DNA from: Capsulimonadaceae bacterium
GTDB lineage: Bacteria; Armatimonadota; Armatimonadia; Armatimonadales; Capsulimonadaceae
Assembly: GCA_965215505.1 (NCBI GenBank)
Contig: OZ244065.1
Span: 4,640,001-4,704,000 of the forward strand
DNA: 64,000 nucleotides
Reading direction: 5' to 3'
The position numbers and the translations under genes were made by a program. Below the pieces are notes generated by a model. It saw only the letters and a program-made list of their open reading frames with translations. It was not told where the DNA came from and ran no database searches. Position 1 is the first letter of the stretch, and each line of letters begins with the position of its first letter. This document shows, one piece after another, positions 57,792-63,986 of the stretch.

Positions 57792-60700
57792 GTTTCAATT
57801 CCAGCCTGGTTCTATTAGAAGCTGGTGGCGCAGATCCGCGAGCAGGAGCAGCCGGTCTAGTTTCAATCCCAGCCTGGTTCTAATTAGAAGAAACGCAAGG
57901 CCGACACGATCCGTTTTGACGAACCTATGTTTCAATTCCAGCCTGGTTCTATTAGAAGGCCGCCCGGCTGTGACAGGCTCCTAGAGGGCATAGAATCGTT
58001 TCAATTCCAGCTTGGTTCTATTAGAAGACGGCACCGGGCCGCAGGGGGCCGGGAGCATTGGCTAGTTTCAATTCCAGCTTGGTTCTATTAGAAGCCGGCG
58101 GCAGGGAGGCGGACAGGAGCGCCGGGGCGTCCCCGAGTTTCAATTCCAGCTTGGTTCTATTAGAAGCTTCATCTTCGCGCCGAGCAGGGCGGCCTGCCGC
58201 TCCCACGTTTCAATTCCAGCTTGGTTCTATTAGAAGCGGCAGCTTCTATCTTGGGGACGACTACATGAGTCACAGGTTTCAATTCCAGCTTGGTTCTATT
58301 AGAAGCCGGCCTGTCTCCGACGCGGAGGCAAAGGCGTACATTCATGTTTCAATTCCAGCTTGGTTCTATTAGAAGCGGAGCGGGGGCAAGCGGGCATGAG
58401 CCTCTACGCCGTGTTTCAATTCCAGCTTGGTTCTATTAGAAGCTTGACGCTGAGGCCGACGCCCGCGCCGGACTGCCCCGCGTTTCAATTCCAGCTTGGT
58501 TCTATTAGAAGCCTCCCGCAGCCCGGCGTGGACCACCGACTCCATCCACGTTTCAATTCCAGCTTGGTTCTATTAGAAGGCCGTCAGGCCGGAGCCATAT
58601 CCACACGCCGTCGCGAGTTTCAATTCCAGCTTGGTTCTATTAGAAGGCGCTTCTGGTTATAGAGCATCGTCAAGGTCCAGTTTCGTTTCAATTCCAGCTT
58701 GGTTCTATTAGAAGACCCGGTGGGGGCGCTCGGGGTGACCTCCACGGACGGGTTTCAATTCCAGCTTGGTTCTATTAGAAGACTCGGGCGACGGCTCCCG
58801 CCCACGGCCGACGAGCTGGTTTCAATTCCAGCTTGGTTCTATTAGAAGGGCCGCCCTCACCTTCGCCCAAGCCTTGCAGGAGCGGTTTCAATTCCAGCTT
58901 GGTTCTATTAGAAGCCGTCTTCCAGGGCGCGGACGTGGACCGGCTGATCGGTTTCAATTCCAGCTTGGTTCTATTAGAAGAGTAGTAAACGTCCGCGTCT
59001 CCGGGCGCAACGTCGTCGGTTTCAATTCCAGCTTGGTTCTATTAGAAGGATATTTGGTTGAGCCATCGCCTTTGAGTCCCAGGTTTCAATTCCAGCTTGG
59101 TTCTATTAGAAGGCCCAGACAGCCTCGAAAATGGGCGCTTTCCATTCATCGTTTCAATTCCAGCTTGGTTCTATTAGAAGACCGAAGGCCTGTCGCAAGT
59201 GTGGGCGCGTGGAACGGGTTTCAATTCCAGCTTGGTTCTATTAGAAGCACCCCGAAAATGTCTAAAACAGACAGCGGGAGTAACTGAGTTTCAATTCCAG
59301 CTTGGTTCTATTAGAAGCTCGTAGACCAGCCGCGCCCAGCGCAGGTCGACCTGTTTCAATTCCAGCTTGGTTCTATTAGAAGCTGGCTCACCCGCCCACG
59401 CCCTCGTTCGCGGGCAACCCGTTTCAATTCCAGCTTGGTTCTATTAGAAGATGATGTCCGCGAAAAAGCCGGGGGCCAGGTTGACGGTTTCAATTCCAGC
59501 TTGGTTCTATTAGAAGCCGTGCCGGACGTTCCCGACGACGCGGCGCTGTATCTCCGTTTCAATTCCAGCTTGGTTCTATTAGAAGGAGGTCGTGAACACG
59601 CCGCCCGTGTCAAAGTTGAGCGTGTTTCAATTCCAGCTTGGTTCTATTAGAAGGTCGTCAGCCGGTGCGGGTTTGTTTTCCATTGGTTCACCTTTGTTTC
59701 AATTCCAGCTTGGTTCTATTAGAAGCAGTAGCCGAACCACTCCTGGAGCAGCCCGATCCACTCGTAGATGTGGTCTTCTAGTTTCAATTCCAGCTTGGTT
59801 CTATTAGAAGAGGCAGTAGACGCGCTTGTTAATTGCGCCGTAATACATTGTTTCAATTCCAGCTTGGTTCTATTAGAAGCATGGGGTCGCACCCGGCAGG
59901 GTCGCACTCGCAACCCTTGTTTCAATTCCAGCTTGGTTCTATTAGAAGTTACCGGCCCGTCCGCCGCCGTCAGCACGGACACTAGTTTCAATTCCAGCTT
60001 GGTTCTATTAGAAGGGGCCGGCACGACGCGCACGTTGGAGGCATACGAGTTTCAATTCCAGCTTGGTTCTATTAGAAGCGGGTCCAGGACGTTGCCAATG
60101 TCCGAGAAAGCAAGCTTCGTTTCAATTCCAGCTTGGTTCTATTAGAAGTGGTCCCTAACGCCTCGGCATCATGGGAATCAACCTGTTTCAATTCCAGCTT
60201 GGTTCTATTAGAAGATGGGGACGCTGACACCCGAGCAACACATCGCCATCAATAGTTTCAATTCCAGCTTGGTTCTATTAGAAGTCGATACTTCATCGTG
60301 GTAGATGAGGGTATCCAGCGTTTCAATTCCAGCTTGGTTCTATTAGAAGGATCGGCAGCTCGACGCTCAGGAACGCCTCATTGCCGTTTCAATTCCAGCT
60401 TGGTTCTATTAGAAGCCGCATCCGCGTGGACGAGGGCGCGGAGCAGAAGGACCTGTTTCAATTCCAGCTTGGTTCTATTAGAAGACGGGGCATAATAGCG
60501 GTGGTAACGCCCCAGCAGGAGAGTTTCAATTCCAGCTTGGTTCTATTAGAAGCATGGAGACTCAGGCGACCCATCCCGCCCCCCACGAGTTTCAATTCCA
60601 GCTTGGTTCTATTAGAAGCTGACCGGTGCGCGCCACCTGTACGTCCTCCCCTAGTTTCAATTCCAGCTTGGTTCTATTAGAAGGCTGCTGGTGGTCGCGG

Positions 60701-63518
60701 CCGGCGACCGCTGCCTGTACCAGTTTCAATTCCAGCTTGGTTCTATTAGAAGTCGCCGCCTCCCAGCCCCAAGGCGAGTCGGAATACATTGTTTCAATTC
60801 CAGCTTGGTTCTATTAGAAGGTTCTGGGACCTCGGGCGGGGCGGCTGGCACGGGCTGGTTTCAATTCCAGCTTGGTTCTATTAGAAGCACGGCGGGCGCG
60901 TCCTGGCCGTCACGGTCGTTACGAGTTTCAATTCCAGCTTGGTTCTATTAGAAGACATCGTGGCCCCCTTACTTCCCGAGCATGACGCGGGTTTCAATTC
61001 CAGCTTGGTTCTATTAGAAGCCATCAGTTGCAGGATGTTCATAGCGCGCTAGTCTTTGTTTCAATTCCAGCTTGGTTCTATTAGAAGTCCACGTCCGAGT
61101 TGTAGACGCGCAGGATCGCACGGTTTCAATTCCAGCTTGGTTCTATTAGAAGTCGGCGCAGGGTCAGGACTGTAGGCCGCATATCCTTGTTTCAATTCCA
61201 GCTTGGTTCTATTAGAAGCCGCCGTGCGACGCTGGCCTCGCACATCGCCGCCTCGACTTGTTTCAATTCCAGCTTGGTTCTATTAGAAGGCGCGCTGGAG
61301 GCCGAAACCATCGACGCCCTGCCGGTTTCAATTCCAGCTTGGTTCTATTAGAAGCAGCGGGCGGAAGTACTCGGCAGCCCGCTGGATGCCTAGTTTCAAT
61401 TCCAGCTTGGTTCTATTAGAAGGAGCAGGTACACCCCGTCCCCGACGATGTGGAAGTTGTTTCAATTCCAGCTTGGTTCTATTAGAAGTTGACGGTCAGG
61501 CCCTTGACAATATGAGCCGGGATGTAGGTTTCAATTCCAGCTTGGTTCTATTAGAAGGGGGATTGATCTGCCACCCCGGAGGCCGCCACAGCTGTTTCAA
61601 TTCCAGCTTGGTTCTATTAGAAGCGTCGCGCGGGTTGGCGTAGCAGACTTTCCACAGGAACGTGTTTCAATTCCAGCTTGGTTCTATTAGAAGAATCGAA
61701 GTGCATAAAGGCTGGCACCGTCACCCGAAGTTTCAATTCCAGCTTGGTTCTATTAGAAGTCAAGGGGGCGACCACGGACCTGGGCGGCAAGCTGCTGTTT
61801 CAATTCCAGCTTGGTTCTATTAGAAGCGTCCCGGTCGCCGTGCCGGGGTCCCAGGCGTCCGTGTCGTTTCAATTCCAGCTTGGTTCTATTAGAAGCTTGC
61901 CCGTAGTGCTGTGCGTGGTCTACACACGAGGGCAGGTTTCAATTCCAGCTTGGTTCTATTAGAAGCTGGCAGAACACCGGTTGGTTCACTGCTCCAGGTC
62001 CTCCACGTTTCAATTCCAGCTTGGTTCTATTAGAAGGCTTCGGCCCGCTGACCGGCGCGGGCAGCCTCAGCGTGTTTCAATTCCAGCTTGGTTCTATTAG
62101 AAGCCTCCCACCCGTCCAACTCCCTCCCCCGGACGCTCATGTTTCAATTCCAGCTTGGTTCTATTAGAAGCGGCACGGGGAGCGGCCCCAATGAACACCC
62201 CCCGCAAGTTTCAATTCCAGCTTGGTTCTATTAGAAGAAGCACACCGCCGAGATGCTCCGCGCCCGCTGCATCTGTTTCAATTCCAGCTTGGTTCTATTA
62301 GAAGCTCGTGATCTGTAAAGCAACTGAGGGCAGCAACTTCAGTTTCAATTCCAGCTTGGTTCTATTAGAAGAACGTGGTGCTTTACCACTTGTTGGCCTA
62401 GATGTATGTTTCAATTCCAGCTTGGTTCTATTAGAAGCTCATAAGTTCTTGTCAAGACCTTTCAAGGTTTATTTGTTTCAATTCCAGCTTGGTTCTATTA
62501 GAAGGCAACGTGCGCGGCTTGACTAGGATCATTGGCTTGTTGGTTTCAATTCCAGCTTGGTTCTATTAGAAGTAGAGGTCGCCCGTGTCGGGCCGCACGT
62601 CTAGCATCTCGGTTTCAATTCCAGCTTGGTTCTATTAGAAGGGGTGAGGTAGGTCGGCACGCCCGCCGCGTTTAGCCGCGTTTCAATTCCAGCTTGGTTC
62701 TATTAGAAGACGGCGCAGAAGGTCGCCGCACTGTCCTCGTACCTGCTCGTTTCAATTCCAGCTTGGTTCTATTAGAAGTTTCCCCGTGACCCGCGCCCGT
62801 GTCCTTTTCTCAGAGTTTCAATTCCAGCTTGGTTCTATTAGAAGTCTCCGTCGCCTTCGGGCGCGCGGGCGGCCTCCCCCTCAGTTTCAATTCCAGCTTG
62901 GTTCTATTAGAAGGAGCATCAATCGTGTCTGTAACCATGACGCCCATTATAGTTTCAATTCCAGCTTGGTTCTATTAGAAGCCGATCAACGATGACAACA
63001 CAATCCGTCAGTCTCTCATGCGTTTCAATTCCAGCTTGGTTCTATTAGAAGTGGTGGATCAATCAGCAGAAGCAACAGGTTGAGAAGTTTCAATTCCAGC
63101 TTGGTTCTATTAGAAGCGGGGTCTATGCTCCGTTTCCAGTGGGCGAGAGCATGTTTCAATTCCAGCTTGGTTCTATTAGAAGGACGGAACGGTCGTGGAG
63201 CGCCACCTGTTCAATCACGAGTTTCAATTCCAGCTTGGTTCTATTAGAAGTTTGCCAACGTACTGAAAACGTCCCGGTTCGGCGTGTTTCAATTCCAGCT
63301 TGGTTCTATTAGAAGGCGAGTGCGCCACCACGCGCCGCGCGTCCCGGTCCTCGTTTCAATTCCAGCTTGGTTCTATTAGAAGGCTGGGGCCGCCCCTGAT
63401 CAACATCTCCCAGGGCCTCTGTTTCAATTCCAGCTTGGTTCTATTAGAAGTGGGCCTGCTCAACGTCTATGTGGCGTTCTACATCTATGTTTCAATTCCA
63501 GCTTGGTTCTATTAGAAG
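57792..63518 (-). CRISPR. CRISPR array, 85 repeats / 84 spacers (manual count), 30-bp repeat CTTCTAATAGAACCAAGCTGGAATTGAAAC in transcribed orientation; probably type I-B
   Basis: Plus-strand unit GTTTCAATTCCAGCTTGGTTCTATTAGAAG; the three leftmost repeats are degenerate (trailer end); leader and cas2 on the right; ATTGAAAC 3' end; spacers mostly ~33-42 nt. Confidence 0.98.
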
Positions 63519-63722
63519 ACCACATCTGGTAGTGGTCGGTCATTGCCGTACTAGGTCTGTGAAGGCGAAACGCTGACACAGCCATTATGTCACAGGAATG
63601 GGATTTTTCACCCGCTTTTTGGGGGAAAGAGTCGTCGGCCTTCTCTGTAGCAGAGGGCTACCGGGGGCCGACGACACGCGGATGGAGGCCAAAACGAGCG
63701 AACGGATTGGGTGAGGATCGGG
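63519..63722 (-). promoter_or_regulatory. CRISPR leader
   Basis: Lies between cas2 and the first repeat; inverted repeat GTCGTCGGCC (63631-63640) / GGCCGACGAC (63666-63675); CATAAT -10-like hexamer on the minus strand. Confidence 0.85.
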
Positions 63723-63986
63723 TTAGAGGAAGTTGCTGACGGGGAGCTTCTCGCAGCCGAACACCTGGCGGTCTACCCACTTGGCGTCGCGCAGGACCCA
63801 GAGGAGGACCGAGTCGCGCTCCCCCGTGAGGAGTTTCTTCAGGCCAACCTTCATGGATTCCAGTTTGGACTCCGGCAGGTCGCCCTCGAAGACCGAGTTC
63901 TGGACGCGCGGCAGGAAGCGCCGCATGAACTTGCAGACCTTGCCGACCCGCTCTTCCCCCACGTCGTAGACGACGATGACGTACAT
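63723..63986 (-). CDS. cas2: CRISPR-associated endonuclease Cas2
   Basis: MYVIVVYDV..ERV.KV.K...R.L..VQNSVFEG; GGAGG RBS; adjacent to the array. Confidence 0.96.
   Translation of the reverse strand: MYVIVVYDVGEERVGKVCKFMRRFLPRVQNSVFEGDLPESKLESMKVGLKKLLTGERDSVLLWVLRDAKWVDRQVFGCEKLPVSNFL

Follow-up and report, generated by a model that had tools for sequence, protein, structure and literature searches.

We analysed a window of 64,000 nucleotides of DNA from a Capsulimonadaceae bacterium, whose genome is assembled as one contig of 6.18 Mb. The window carries a CRISPR array together with its leader and cas2 (Table 1). Transcription of the array starts from the high-coordinate end, where the leader and cas2 lie, and three of the 85 repeats, all at the opposite (trailer) end, are degenerate; the other 82 are identical 30-mers. 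On the minus strand the repeat ends in ATTGAAAC, and its start carries a 5-bp inverted repeat, TTCTA-A-TAGAA. After cas2, past the end of the window, come cas1b, cas4, cas3, cas5b, cas7/Csh2 and cas6. The cas genes were identified with the NCBIfam models TIGR01573, TIGR03641, TIGR00372, TIGR01587/01596, TIGR02592, TIGR02590 and TIGR01877; Cas1 scored 437.6 bits on TIGR03641 (cut-off 304), whereas for the 605-aa protein presumed to be the large subunit no NCBIfam match was obtained. Direct repeats of ~30 nt, unique spacers and the adjoining cas6, cas7 (Csh2), cas5b, cas3, cas4, cas1b and cas2 place the system in type I-B. The first-pass annotation had supposed a paralogous array, in this genome or on a mobile element. 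In the genome we found a single array: when up to 5 substitutions were allowed the repeat matched at 84 places, all of them inside it, and a periodic k-mer scan of the genome revealed no further array.

Table 1. Features of the CRISPR locus, in window coordinates
Feature	Coordinates	Strand	Remarks
Type I-B CRISPR array	57792..63518	-	85 repeats (30 nt), 84 spacers
Perfect repeat	59696..59725	-	leader-distal flank of spacer 56
Oversized spacer	59726..59780	-	55 nt, number 56 of 84 counting from the leader
40-nt part of spacer 56	59726..59765	-	normal spacer length; P4/D5_N-type primase protospacer, encodes (Y)EWIGLLQEWFGY
15-nt insert	59766..59780	-	leader-proximal (PAM-proximal) spacer end; exact inverted copy of own leader-repeat junction
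Perfect repeat	59781..59810	-	leader-proximal flank of spacer 56
Source of insert: leader-repeat junction	63513..63527	-	repeat positions 1-6 (63513-63518) and leader -1 to -9 (63519-63527)
Leader	63519..63722	-	between cas2 and first repeat; last ~10 nt conserved in four relatives
cas2	63723..63986	-	NCBIfam profile match

Spacer length was measured between perfect repeats, which gave 81 spacers. Eighty of them were 34-42 nt long (mean 37.6, sd 1.8), and spacer 56 was 55 nt long, so that the unusual length first ascribed to it was borne out. Subtracting the 15 nt discussed below leaves 40 nt, which is within the normal range and is the length of 8 of the 81 measured spacers; in other words, the overlength equals the length of the matched part. 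Fifty-five more spacers were gained after this one. Fusion of two spacers after loss of a repeat was ruled out, as 55 nt is less than twice 34 nt and the repeat-like bases amount to only 6 nt and are inverted. We also rejected a fusion of two arrays and, both flanking repeats being oriented alike, an inversion between arrays. The RNA structure of the repeat-spacer unit was unremarkable (z -1.27), and no Rfam family matched it.

The leader-proximal end of spacer 56 consists of six nucleotides of repeat start and nine of leader end, inverted, with 15/15 identity and ending at the spacer boundary. The exact reverse complementarity to the leader-repeat junction that had been noticed at first pass is therefore real. 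The insert joins directly to the last transcribed base of the leader-proximal flanking repeat, that is, to the 5' end of the plus-strand repeat. By blastn against the 6.18 Mb genome, three other 15-mers of spacer 56 also matched exactly elsewhere by chance, each with an E value of 0.2, so a 15-mer match at just any place carries no meaning. The composition-adjusted chance of a junction-spanning match that ends exactly at the spacer boundary was ~1e-8, and that of a junction match anywhere within the spacer ~2e-7. For comparison, we took 240 other spacers, from this array and from two related arrays: the longest substring that any of them had in common with its own 70-nt junction, on either strand, was 9 nt, and no similar insert was seen among them. 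Against the leaders of four relatives, whose junctions read ...TGGC/CTTTTA, ...TGGC/CCTTTA and, in G012, ...ATGGC/CTTCTA, the array's own leader alone gave a 15/15 match. These results support the conclusion that the 15 nt derive from the leader-repeat junction and do not match it by chance. In the geometry of such a copy the two arms stand 24 nt apart, the distance being the remainder of the repeat.

An imperfect continuation of the match had also been reported, and similarity past the 15-mer does exist (AGTGGATCGG vs AGTGG-TCGG). It did not reach significance alone, as 4.3% of 4092 random 13-mers from other spacers scored equally well (p 0.043), and the three bases adjoining the insert mismatch the leader. 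The bases after the 15-mer are in-frame primase codons, E-W-I-G, present at the same place in same-genus homologues.

The 40-nt part could be traced to a gene family. The reading frame translates as EDHIYEWIGLLQEWFGY; of 17 third codon positions, 16 are G or C. The frame is the same as that of ...DLIQEWFGY... in an annotated P4-family primase. The proposal that the spacer came from a leader thus fails for 40 of its 55 nt, which are an in-frame P4/D5_N primase segment of a mobile element. In a 60-nt BLAST against 71 genomes of the order, the best match was a same-genus contig (G007) with 88% identity over 40 nt; searching the array spacers against five same-genus genomes returned the same G007 match alone. 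An exact 23-mer scan of IMG/VR, GTDB genomes and JGI metagenomes yielded 17 loci sharing 23-27 nt exactly with the 40-mer (4 in IMG/VR, 5 in GTDB and 8 in metagenomes). All of these are primase genes and none is an array; the source element is not among them. The P4/D5_N primase genes matched by the 40-nt part belong to viral contigs and a plasmid. To judge from this homology, the 40-nt protospacer stems from a plasmid- or phage-like element, namely from its primase gene.

A BLAST of the full 55-mer against the genome, IMG/VR and plasmids had been advised in the first-pass annotation, where a perfect match next to another copy of the repeat was to count as support; the searches returned partial matches. 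Against phages and plasmids, blastn gave partial matches of 23-36 nt alone (E 0.09 to 4), the best of which fell in primase genes and the rest in scattered, unrelated genes. The true protospacer was found neither in phages and plasmids nor in IMG/VR, GTDB genomes or JGI metagenomes, and the spacer-bearing stretch 57822-63488 had no match in phage or plasmid collections. Searching the spacers of the three arrays against the fetched foreign loci produced nothing useful, and tblastn of the own genome with three primase homologues gave nothing at E < 1e-5. The 15-nt insert was missing from all 17 primase loci, which match it at 2-8 of 15 positions. Among 19 homologues of the primase subfamily with the xEW motif, 17 have G five residues before EW and 13 have C two residues before it. 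The residues that the insert would encode lack the conserved G, and E, D, H and I, each at its own one of the four places, occur in none of the 19. The disagreement of the xEW-subfamily residues with the insert indicates that primase homology stops at the boundary between the 15-nt and the 40-nt parts.

A possibility was nevertheless that the whole 55-mer is one contiguous, oversized primase protospacer and that its identity with the junction is a coincidence. The insert shares the reading frame of the primase codons, contains no stop, and has G or C in the third position of three of its four complete codons. Its translation would be (L/I/V)-E-D-H, which resembles, one residue out of register, a sister-subfamily motif, L-E-[G/D/E]-D, present in 7 of 23 non-EW alignment rows. 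A relative, G008, has an array of the same CRISPR family with a contiguous 76-nt spacer against the same primase family, hence oversized spacers do arise here without any insertion; unlike that single uninterrupted coding stretch, however, spacer 56 changes origin between positions 15 and 16. Many windows were scanned, and rare coincidences are thus to be expected, but a chance of ~1e-8 to 2e-7 per spacer, a maximum of 9 nt in the comparison set, an overlength equal to the matched length and the residues foreign to the subfamily make this explanation quite improbable. Replication template switching or recombinational repair, operating without the adaptation machinery, is another candidate, and one that we consider unlikely, if still worth weighing. 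Mutations that leave a templated inverted patch are a known class (quasipalindrome template switching), the repeat begins with a short inverted repeat, and the weak 13-nt similarity adjoins the insert. Yet the three bases on which the primer would have had to end differ from those of the leader, no register was found in the sequence in which the nascent end could pair and switch back, and the insert meets the repeat boundary to the base, for which a polymerase switch has no reason. Two related routes, a snap-back from the repeat end and a microhomology-primed extension, were rejected, the former for lack of pairing and the latter on account of the three terminal mismatches.

A leader-like part of at most 28 nt could have been captured at the leader end of another array, paralogous or foreign, whose leader had diverged. 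Leaders of the clade share a motif, CCACAT.T followed by ..GTGG..., and a contig of a public run (X3) has a related array with a leader that likewise starts with CCACATCT. Against it, the genome is without a second array, the bases past the 15-mer are the E-W-I-G codons seen at the same place in same-genus primases, the leaders of the four relatives fit no better than the own leader, and the continuation is not significant. As only the own leader matches throughout the 15 nt and those of the relatives fit worse, the earlier idea of another array's leader as the source is not supported, and we regard such a capture as very improbable. An assembly or sequencing artefact appears to us equally remote. 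None of the public runs contains the spacer stretch: the best share of the stretch was 0.05, in three runs, and these hold only the repeat of related arrays. A 15-nt inverted copy placed with base precision at a repeat boundary, between perfect repeats and in a genome of one contig, would nonetheless be an unusual assembly error.

The reading that we favour, with a probability of about 0.6, is that spacer 56 is a chimera produced when spacer integration or gap repair went wrong. In the sense of the crRNA (minus strand), it would start with the 15-nt inverted junction copy and continue with an ordinary 40-nt primase protospacer. On the bottom strand, the insert is placed exactly where the spacer meets the 5' end of the repeat. 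The bond at this place is the one that Cas1 forms at spacer insertion and breaks again at the next insertion, and both new joints would have the polarity of a Cas1 strand transfer, with a 3' end onto the 5' side of the target. It is this position at the Cas1 bond, together with the polarity of the joints, that leads us to read the insert as the putative scar of a faulty adaptation round at the first repeat. Two routes may be envisaged. An incoming prespacer strand may have borne a 3' tail made of leader and six repeat bases, such as a half-integration away from the proper site, in the leader, could leave. Alternatively, during insertion of the next spacer, the freed 3' end of the leader may have been gap-filled 6 nt into the repeat and joined to the wrong partner, and the hairpin-like product would then have been opened off-centre and resealed. 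The joint between insert and repeat is exactly the canonical spacer-side bond; the other joint lies 9 nt inside the leader and is not a known site. Since the insert meets the repeat precisely at this scissile bond, the link to Cas1-Cas2 integration suggested at first pass is the reading that needs the fewest assumptions. The data show how the spacer is built, where its two parts come from and how improbable chance is; Cas1 or gap repair as the maker of the joints, like the round in which they were made, we infer. Against a chimera speaks the finding that no microhomology would prime a simple template switch. No Ku gene was found in the genome, which disfavours a Ku-dependent end-joining route.

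A more specific version of the favoured chimera is distinctly unlikely in our estimation: a transposase-like side reaction of the integrase would have been recorded in vivo, with the 3' end of the leader, extended by six bases, transferred to the opposite strand at the spacer-side site. Just as doubtful is the accompanying idea that a hairpin-capped end was opened off-centre and resealed, which would be the prokaryotic equivalent of a step in V(D)J joining, where palindromic (P) nucleotides are added after off-centre opening of a hairpin. These P nucleotides and quasipalindrome mutations resemble the insert in being a short inverted copy of nearby sequence at a DNA joint; unlike in either of them, the arms here are separated. 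To our knowledge, no hairpin-forming activity has been described for Cas1.

The steps that lead from strand transfer to a sealed repeat-spacer unit are known almost solely from test-tube work, and CRISPR arrays are usually taken as clean records. If the favoured reading is true, spacer 56 would be a rare natural fossil of a failed or sloppy adaptation round, and its junctions would be concrete constraints for models of gap repair or of side reactions. It suggests a survey for spacers that mirror, at the PAM-proximal end, the leader-repeat junction of their own array. Should the 55-mer turn up in the source element, spacer 56 would be an oversized spacer of the ordinary kind, and its match to the junction an instructive coincidence. 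In the literature that we searched we found no paper describing an inverted leader-repeat copy inside a spacer, which is not proof that none was published.

As far as the accessible parts of the reports go, known acquisition systems offer close parallels. The type I-B system of Haloarcula hispanica, in which acquisition depends on Cas4-Cas1-Cas2, likewise has repeats of 30 nt, with an AACC... motif in their middle, ~10 nt from the junction, a conserved leader end, 34-42 nt spacers and adjacent cas6-cas8-cas7-cas5-cas3-cas4-cas1-cas2 (PMC4872114). In contrast to ordinary I-B acquisition, spacer 56 has 15 inverted, host-derived bases at its PAM-proximal end; the accessible part of the Haloarcula study deals with altered sizes of repeat duplication and not with inverted junction copies (PMC4872114). 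The 3' ends and both scissile bonds next to the insert also take part in the in vitro integration reactions of a type II-A system, yet no inverted leader-repeat fragment is described as a product in that portion of the work (PMC8390005).

Self-targeting had also been considered. The host match covers 15 of the 55 nt and lies at the junction of the array itself, far short of the near full-length match outside the array that would mark a self-targeting spacer, and no measured spacer matched the own genome at E < 1e-4. Nor would the copy be expected to serve as an ectopic integration site, as had been suggested: it lacks, ~10 bp downstream, the mid-repeat AACC motif that the haloarchaeal I-B system needs (PMC4872114, as far as its accessible text goes) and that by analogy would be needed here. 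The crRNA of spacer 56 would have host-derived bases in its seed, and its activity against the primase target is probably lost. From general type I rules, a 15-nt host match would be too short for attack by Cas3; the triplet flanking that match would be TAT. CreA and CreR of type I systems are crRNA-like regulators that use partial complementarity. By the same token, a seed-proximal host match of 11-15 nt would allow Cascade binding without cutting, but here, unlike for CreA/CreR, the target is not shown to be a promoter and the PAM is not established. The notion that the 15-nt seed guides Cascade to the array's own integration site and acts as a brake looks extremely improbable, and the 55 later spacers show that integration was not blocked.

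The genes past the end of the window were, in order, cas1b, cas4, cas3, cas5b, cas7/Csh2, two unassigned genes and cas6. On the minus strand, the terminal bases of the repeat are ATTGAAAC. This repeat end, together with the spacer-free stretch and the position of cas2 and the other cas genes on the high-coordinate side, shows that the locus is of type I-B, transcribed on the minus strand, with its oldest spacers at low coordinates. It is an ordinary I-B array. An AACC... motif of its repeat sits where the Haloarcula I-B repeat has AACCC, an essential motif there (PMC4872114). Among the 85 repeats, 82 were identical and the three degenerate ones lay at the low-coordinate end (57792-57960). These three oldest repeats share a T-to-C change (CCAGCCTGG), to which the second adds another one of this type (CAATCCC) and the insertion of one base, as is typical of trailer-end decay. 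Incidentally, the Cas1 protein encoded past the window end (positions 1038-2261 of locus L001) has 407 aa against the 324 positions of the type I-B model, and its match to this model was split into two stretches, which suggests an insertion or extension of ~80 residues.

Features of the CRISPR locus and of its oversize spacer
Feature	Position in window	Strand	Description
CRISPR array	57792-63518	minus (transcription)	85 copies of a 30-nt repeat
Odd spacer	59726-59780	minus	55 nt; number 56 of 84 from the leader; perfect repeats on both sides
Leader	63519-63722	minus	~200 nt without spacers, between cas2 and the first repeat
cas2	63723-63986	minus	at the high-coordinate end of the array

The first-pass annotation had pointed to one oversize spacer ending with an inverted copy of the leader-repeat junction, and both observations were confirmed. 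Indeed, 80 of the 81 spacers lying between the 82 perfect repeats measured 34-42 nt (mean 37.6, sd 1.8), the remaining one being the odd spacer. Direct comparison and a genome-wide search showed that its last 15 plus-strand bases (59766-59780, hereafter the insert) are the exact reverse complement of 63513-63527. Read as transcribed, the spacer thus opens with the 6 initial repeat bases and then the 9 final leader bases, both in inverted copy. Because three other 15-mers of the spacer also had exact chance matches elsewhere in the genome (E 0.2 each), the 15-nt match is remarkable solely by its location. Given the base composition of the spacers, the chance of a junction-spanning match was ~1e-8 if it had to end at the spacer boundary and ~2e-7 if it could fall anywhere in the spacer. 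As a control, 240 other spacers (82 from the window array and 79 from each of two related genomes, G008 and G015) were compared on both strands with the 70-nt junction of their own array, and the longest string in common was 9 nt. We noticed that every repeat, 63489-63518 included, begins in the transcribed sense with two inverted 5-bp arms flanking a single base (TTCTA-A-TAGAA, positions 2-12). Read directly, positions 8-12 of the repeat therefore also equal the first five insert bases.

The rest of the spacer has another origin. Frame 3 of the spacer, taken in the crRNA sense, encodes EDHIYEWIGLLQEWFGY, and 16 of the 17 codons end in G or C. By blastn, the 55-mer matched both phages and plasmids, weakly and over part of its length. 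The best matches were primase/helicase genes of three Alteromonas phages and a Streptomyces plasmid gene annotated "phage/plasmid primase, P4 family", matched in the same frame at ...DLIQEWFGYVLSG..., directly before the P-loop; the remaining plasmid rows among the matches listed were unrelated genes (E 0.3 to 4). Among 71 genomes of the order, a contig of the same genus (G007) showed 88% identity over 40 nt, that is, spacer positions 17-55 plus one base. Lastly, the distal-end 23-mer was found exactly in 4 IMG/VR, 5 GTDB and 8 metagenome contigs, and in each of these 17 loci it encodes LLQEWFGYC of a D5_N-type primase. These matches identify positions 16-55, 40 nt and hence of normal spacer length, as a protospacer from a D5_N-type primase gene. 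The actual source element was not found in phages, plasmids, IMG/VR, GTDB genomes or metagenomes, nor was a primase copy found in the host genome.

We consider it likely (probability about 0.8) that the odd spacer is a chimera of the insert and a 40-nt primase protospacer. The whole 55-mer might instead be one contiguous primase protospacer, the junction identity being pure coincidence. Indeed, the insert is in frame and stop-free, three of its four complete codons end in G or C, and its (L/I/V)-E-D-H resembles the L-E-[G/D/E]-D of another primase subfamily (7 of 23 rows), though one residue out of register. Moreover, oversized spacers occur in these arrays without insertion: spacer 50 of G008 (L042, 5606-5681), 76 nt or about double length, corresponds to an unbroken piece of D5_N primase coding sequence (AFLSTVQLPIAYDPDAACPHWDKFT), lying just upstream of the part that the odd spacer targets. 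Yet the chance values and the 9-nt maximum of the control set oppose coincidence, and the excess length equals the matched length, 15 nt in both cases. The first 15 nt agree with each of the 17 loci at merely 2-8 of 15 positions. Among 19 "xEW" homologues (the rows fitting the motif pattern, out of 40 database proteins plus the translated loci), G stands five residues before E-W in 17 and C two before in 13, and none has any of the would-be residues E, D, H and I of the insert at its place. The 40-nt part fits the family well. We thus hold a contiguous protospacer to be unlikely. An assembly error as the origin of the 55 nt is considered very unlikely as well. Nor does the odd spacer belong to the class of fused spacer pairs.

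The spacer had been attributed to the leader end of a paralogous array. Yet a periodic k-mer scan of the 6.18 Mb single-contig genome found no second array, a repeat search allowing at most five substitutions gave 84 matches, every one inside the window array, and a paralogue is not needed to explain the 15 nt. The array's own junction (...AGATGTGGT/CTTCTA, leader/repeat) alone gave 15/15, as compared with those of four relatives, whose leader ends are conserved yet unlike it (...TGGC/CTTTTA, ...TGGC/CCTTTA and, in G012, ...ATGGC/CTTCTA). This, and the primase origin of the remainder, spoke against capture from another array's leader. All 17 loci with the 23-mer were primase genes rather than arrays. 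The similarity reported past the 15-mer does exist, but not as leader sequence: these bases are codons for E-W-I-G, E-W occurs at the equivalent place in same-genus primase homologues, and the agreement with the leader was no better than that of 4.3% of 4092 random spacer 13-mers. The junction of a very close relative may also have been the source, as a related array shares the first 8-9 leader bases before diverging; it belongs to another organism in the public sequencing run X3, in a contig placed at 59624-59654, and has the same or a nearly identical repeat.

How could the insert have arisen? In plus-strand order, the 40-mer is followed by top-strand leader bases -9 to -1, repeat bases 1-6 and the 5' end of the bottom-strand repeat. 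Both new joints would have strand-transfer polarity, with a 3' end attached to the target's 5' side. The second one, from insert to repeat, coincides exactly with the bond made by Cas1 as it links a prespacer, by its PAM-side 3' end, to the first repeat at the spacer side, and broken by Cas1 at the insertion of the following spacer. Two routes would fit. The incoming strand may already have carried a 3' tail of leader and six repeat bases, possibly because it had half-integrated off-site, 9 nt into the leader, and the chimeric fragment was re-captured; with a PAM of TAT, the cut after repeat base 6, just before ATA, would be a suitable one for Cas4. Alternatively, during the following round, gap filling would add six bases to the leader 3' end that the first strand transfer had released, and this end would be joined to the bottom-strand repeat, replacing the proper partner. 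A nick in the hairpin-like end, 15 nt from the tip, and its ligation to the spacer end that had been freed would then produce precisely the order observed, and the array would not have gained a spacer. A simple template switch by a polymerase is a poorer fit, since the three bases adjoining the insert mismatch the leader and no pairing was found for a switch back. No Ku was found in the genome.

In the crRNA, host-derived bases would occupy the seed and the primase match would be displaced by 15 nt, so that activity against the element was probably lost. Self-targeting, also put forward by the first-pass annotation, found no support: the host match is 15 nt only, far short of what Cas3 recruitment needs, and the host would thus tolerate the spacer. 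The acquisition of 55 spacers after it indicates that it did not block adaptation. Its unit showed no unusual RNA structure. In literature listings, no report of a spacer containing an inverted leader-repeat copy was found. We infer that this is an aberrant spacer, and offer the mechanism as a proposal.

The DNA encoding LLQEWFGYC was nucleotide-identical over 23-27 nt (59726-59752; L025-L041) across primase genes with diverged flanks, in viral contigs and MAGs labelled Planctomycetota, Phycisphaerae and Armatimonadota. For a coding motif, such conservation of the DNA itself is unusually strong. Four related primase loci (L032, L034, L036 and L040) contain exact 13-nt matches to spacer 33 (61290-61324), in every case ~158 nt away from where the odd spacer matches. 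Spacer 33 may also be directed at this gene family, the matches being individually weak (E 0.048) and the four loci non-independent. Finally, irregular acquisition in this CRISPR family was seen once more in G008: its newest spacer, first after the leader in L042, was just 26 nt, a 13-nt unit twice in tandem.
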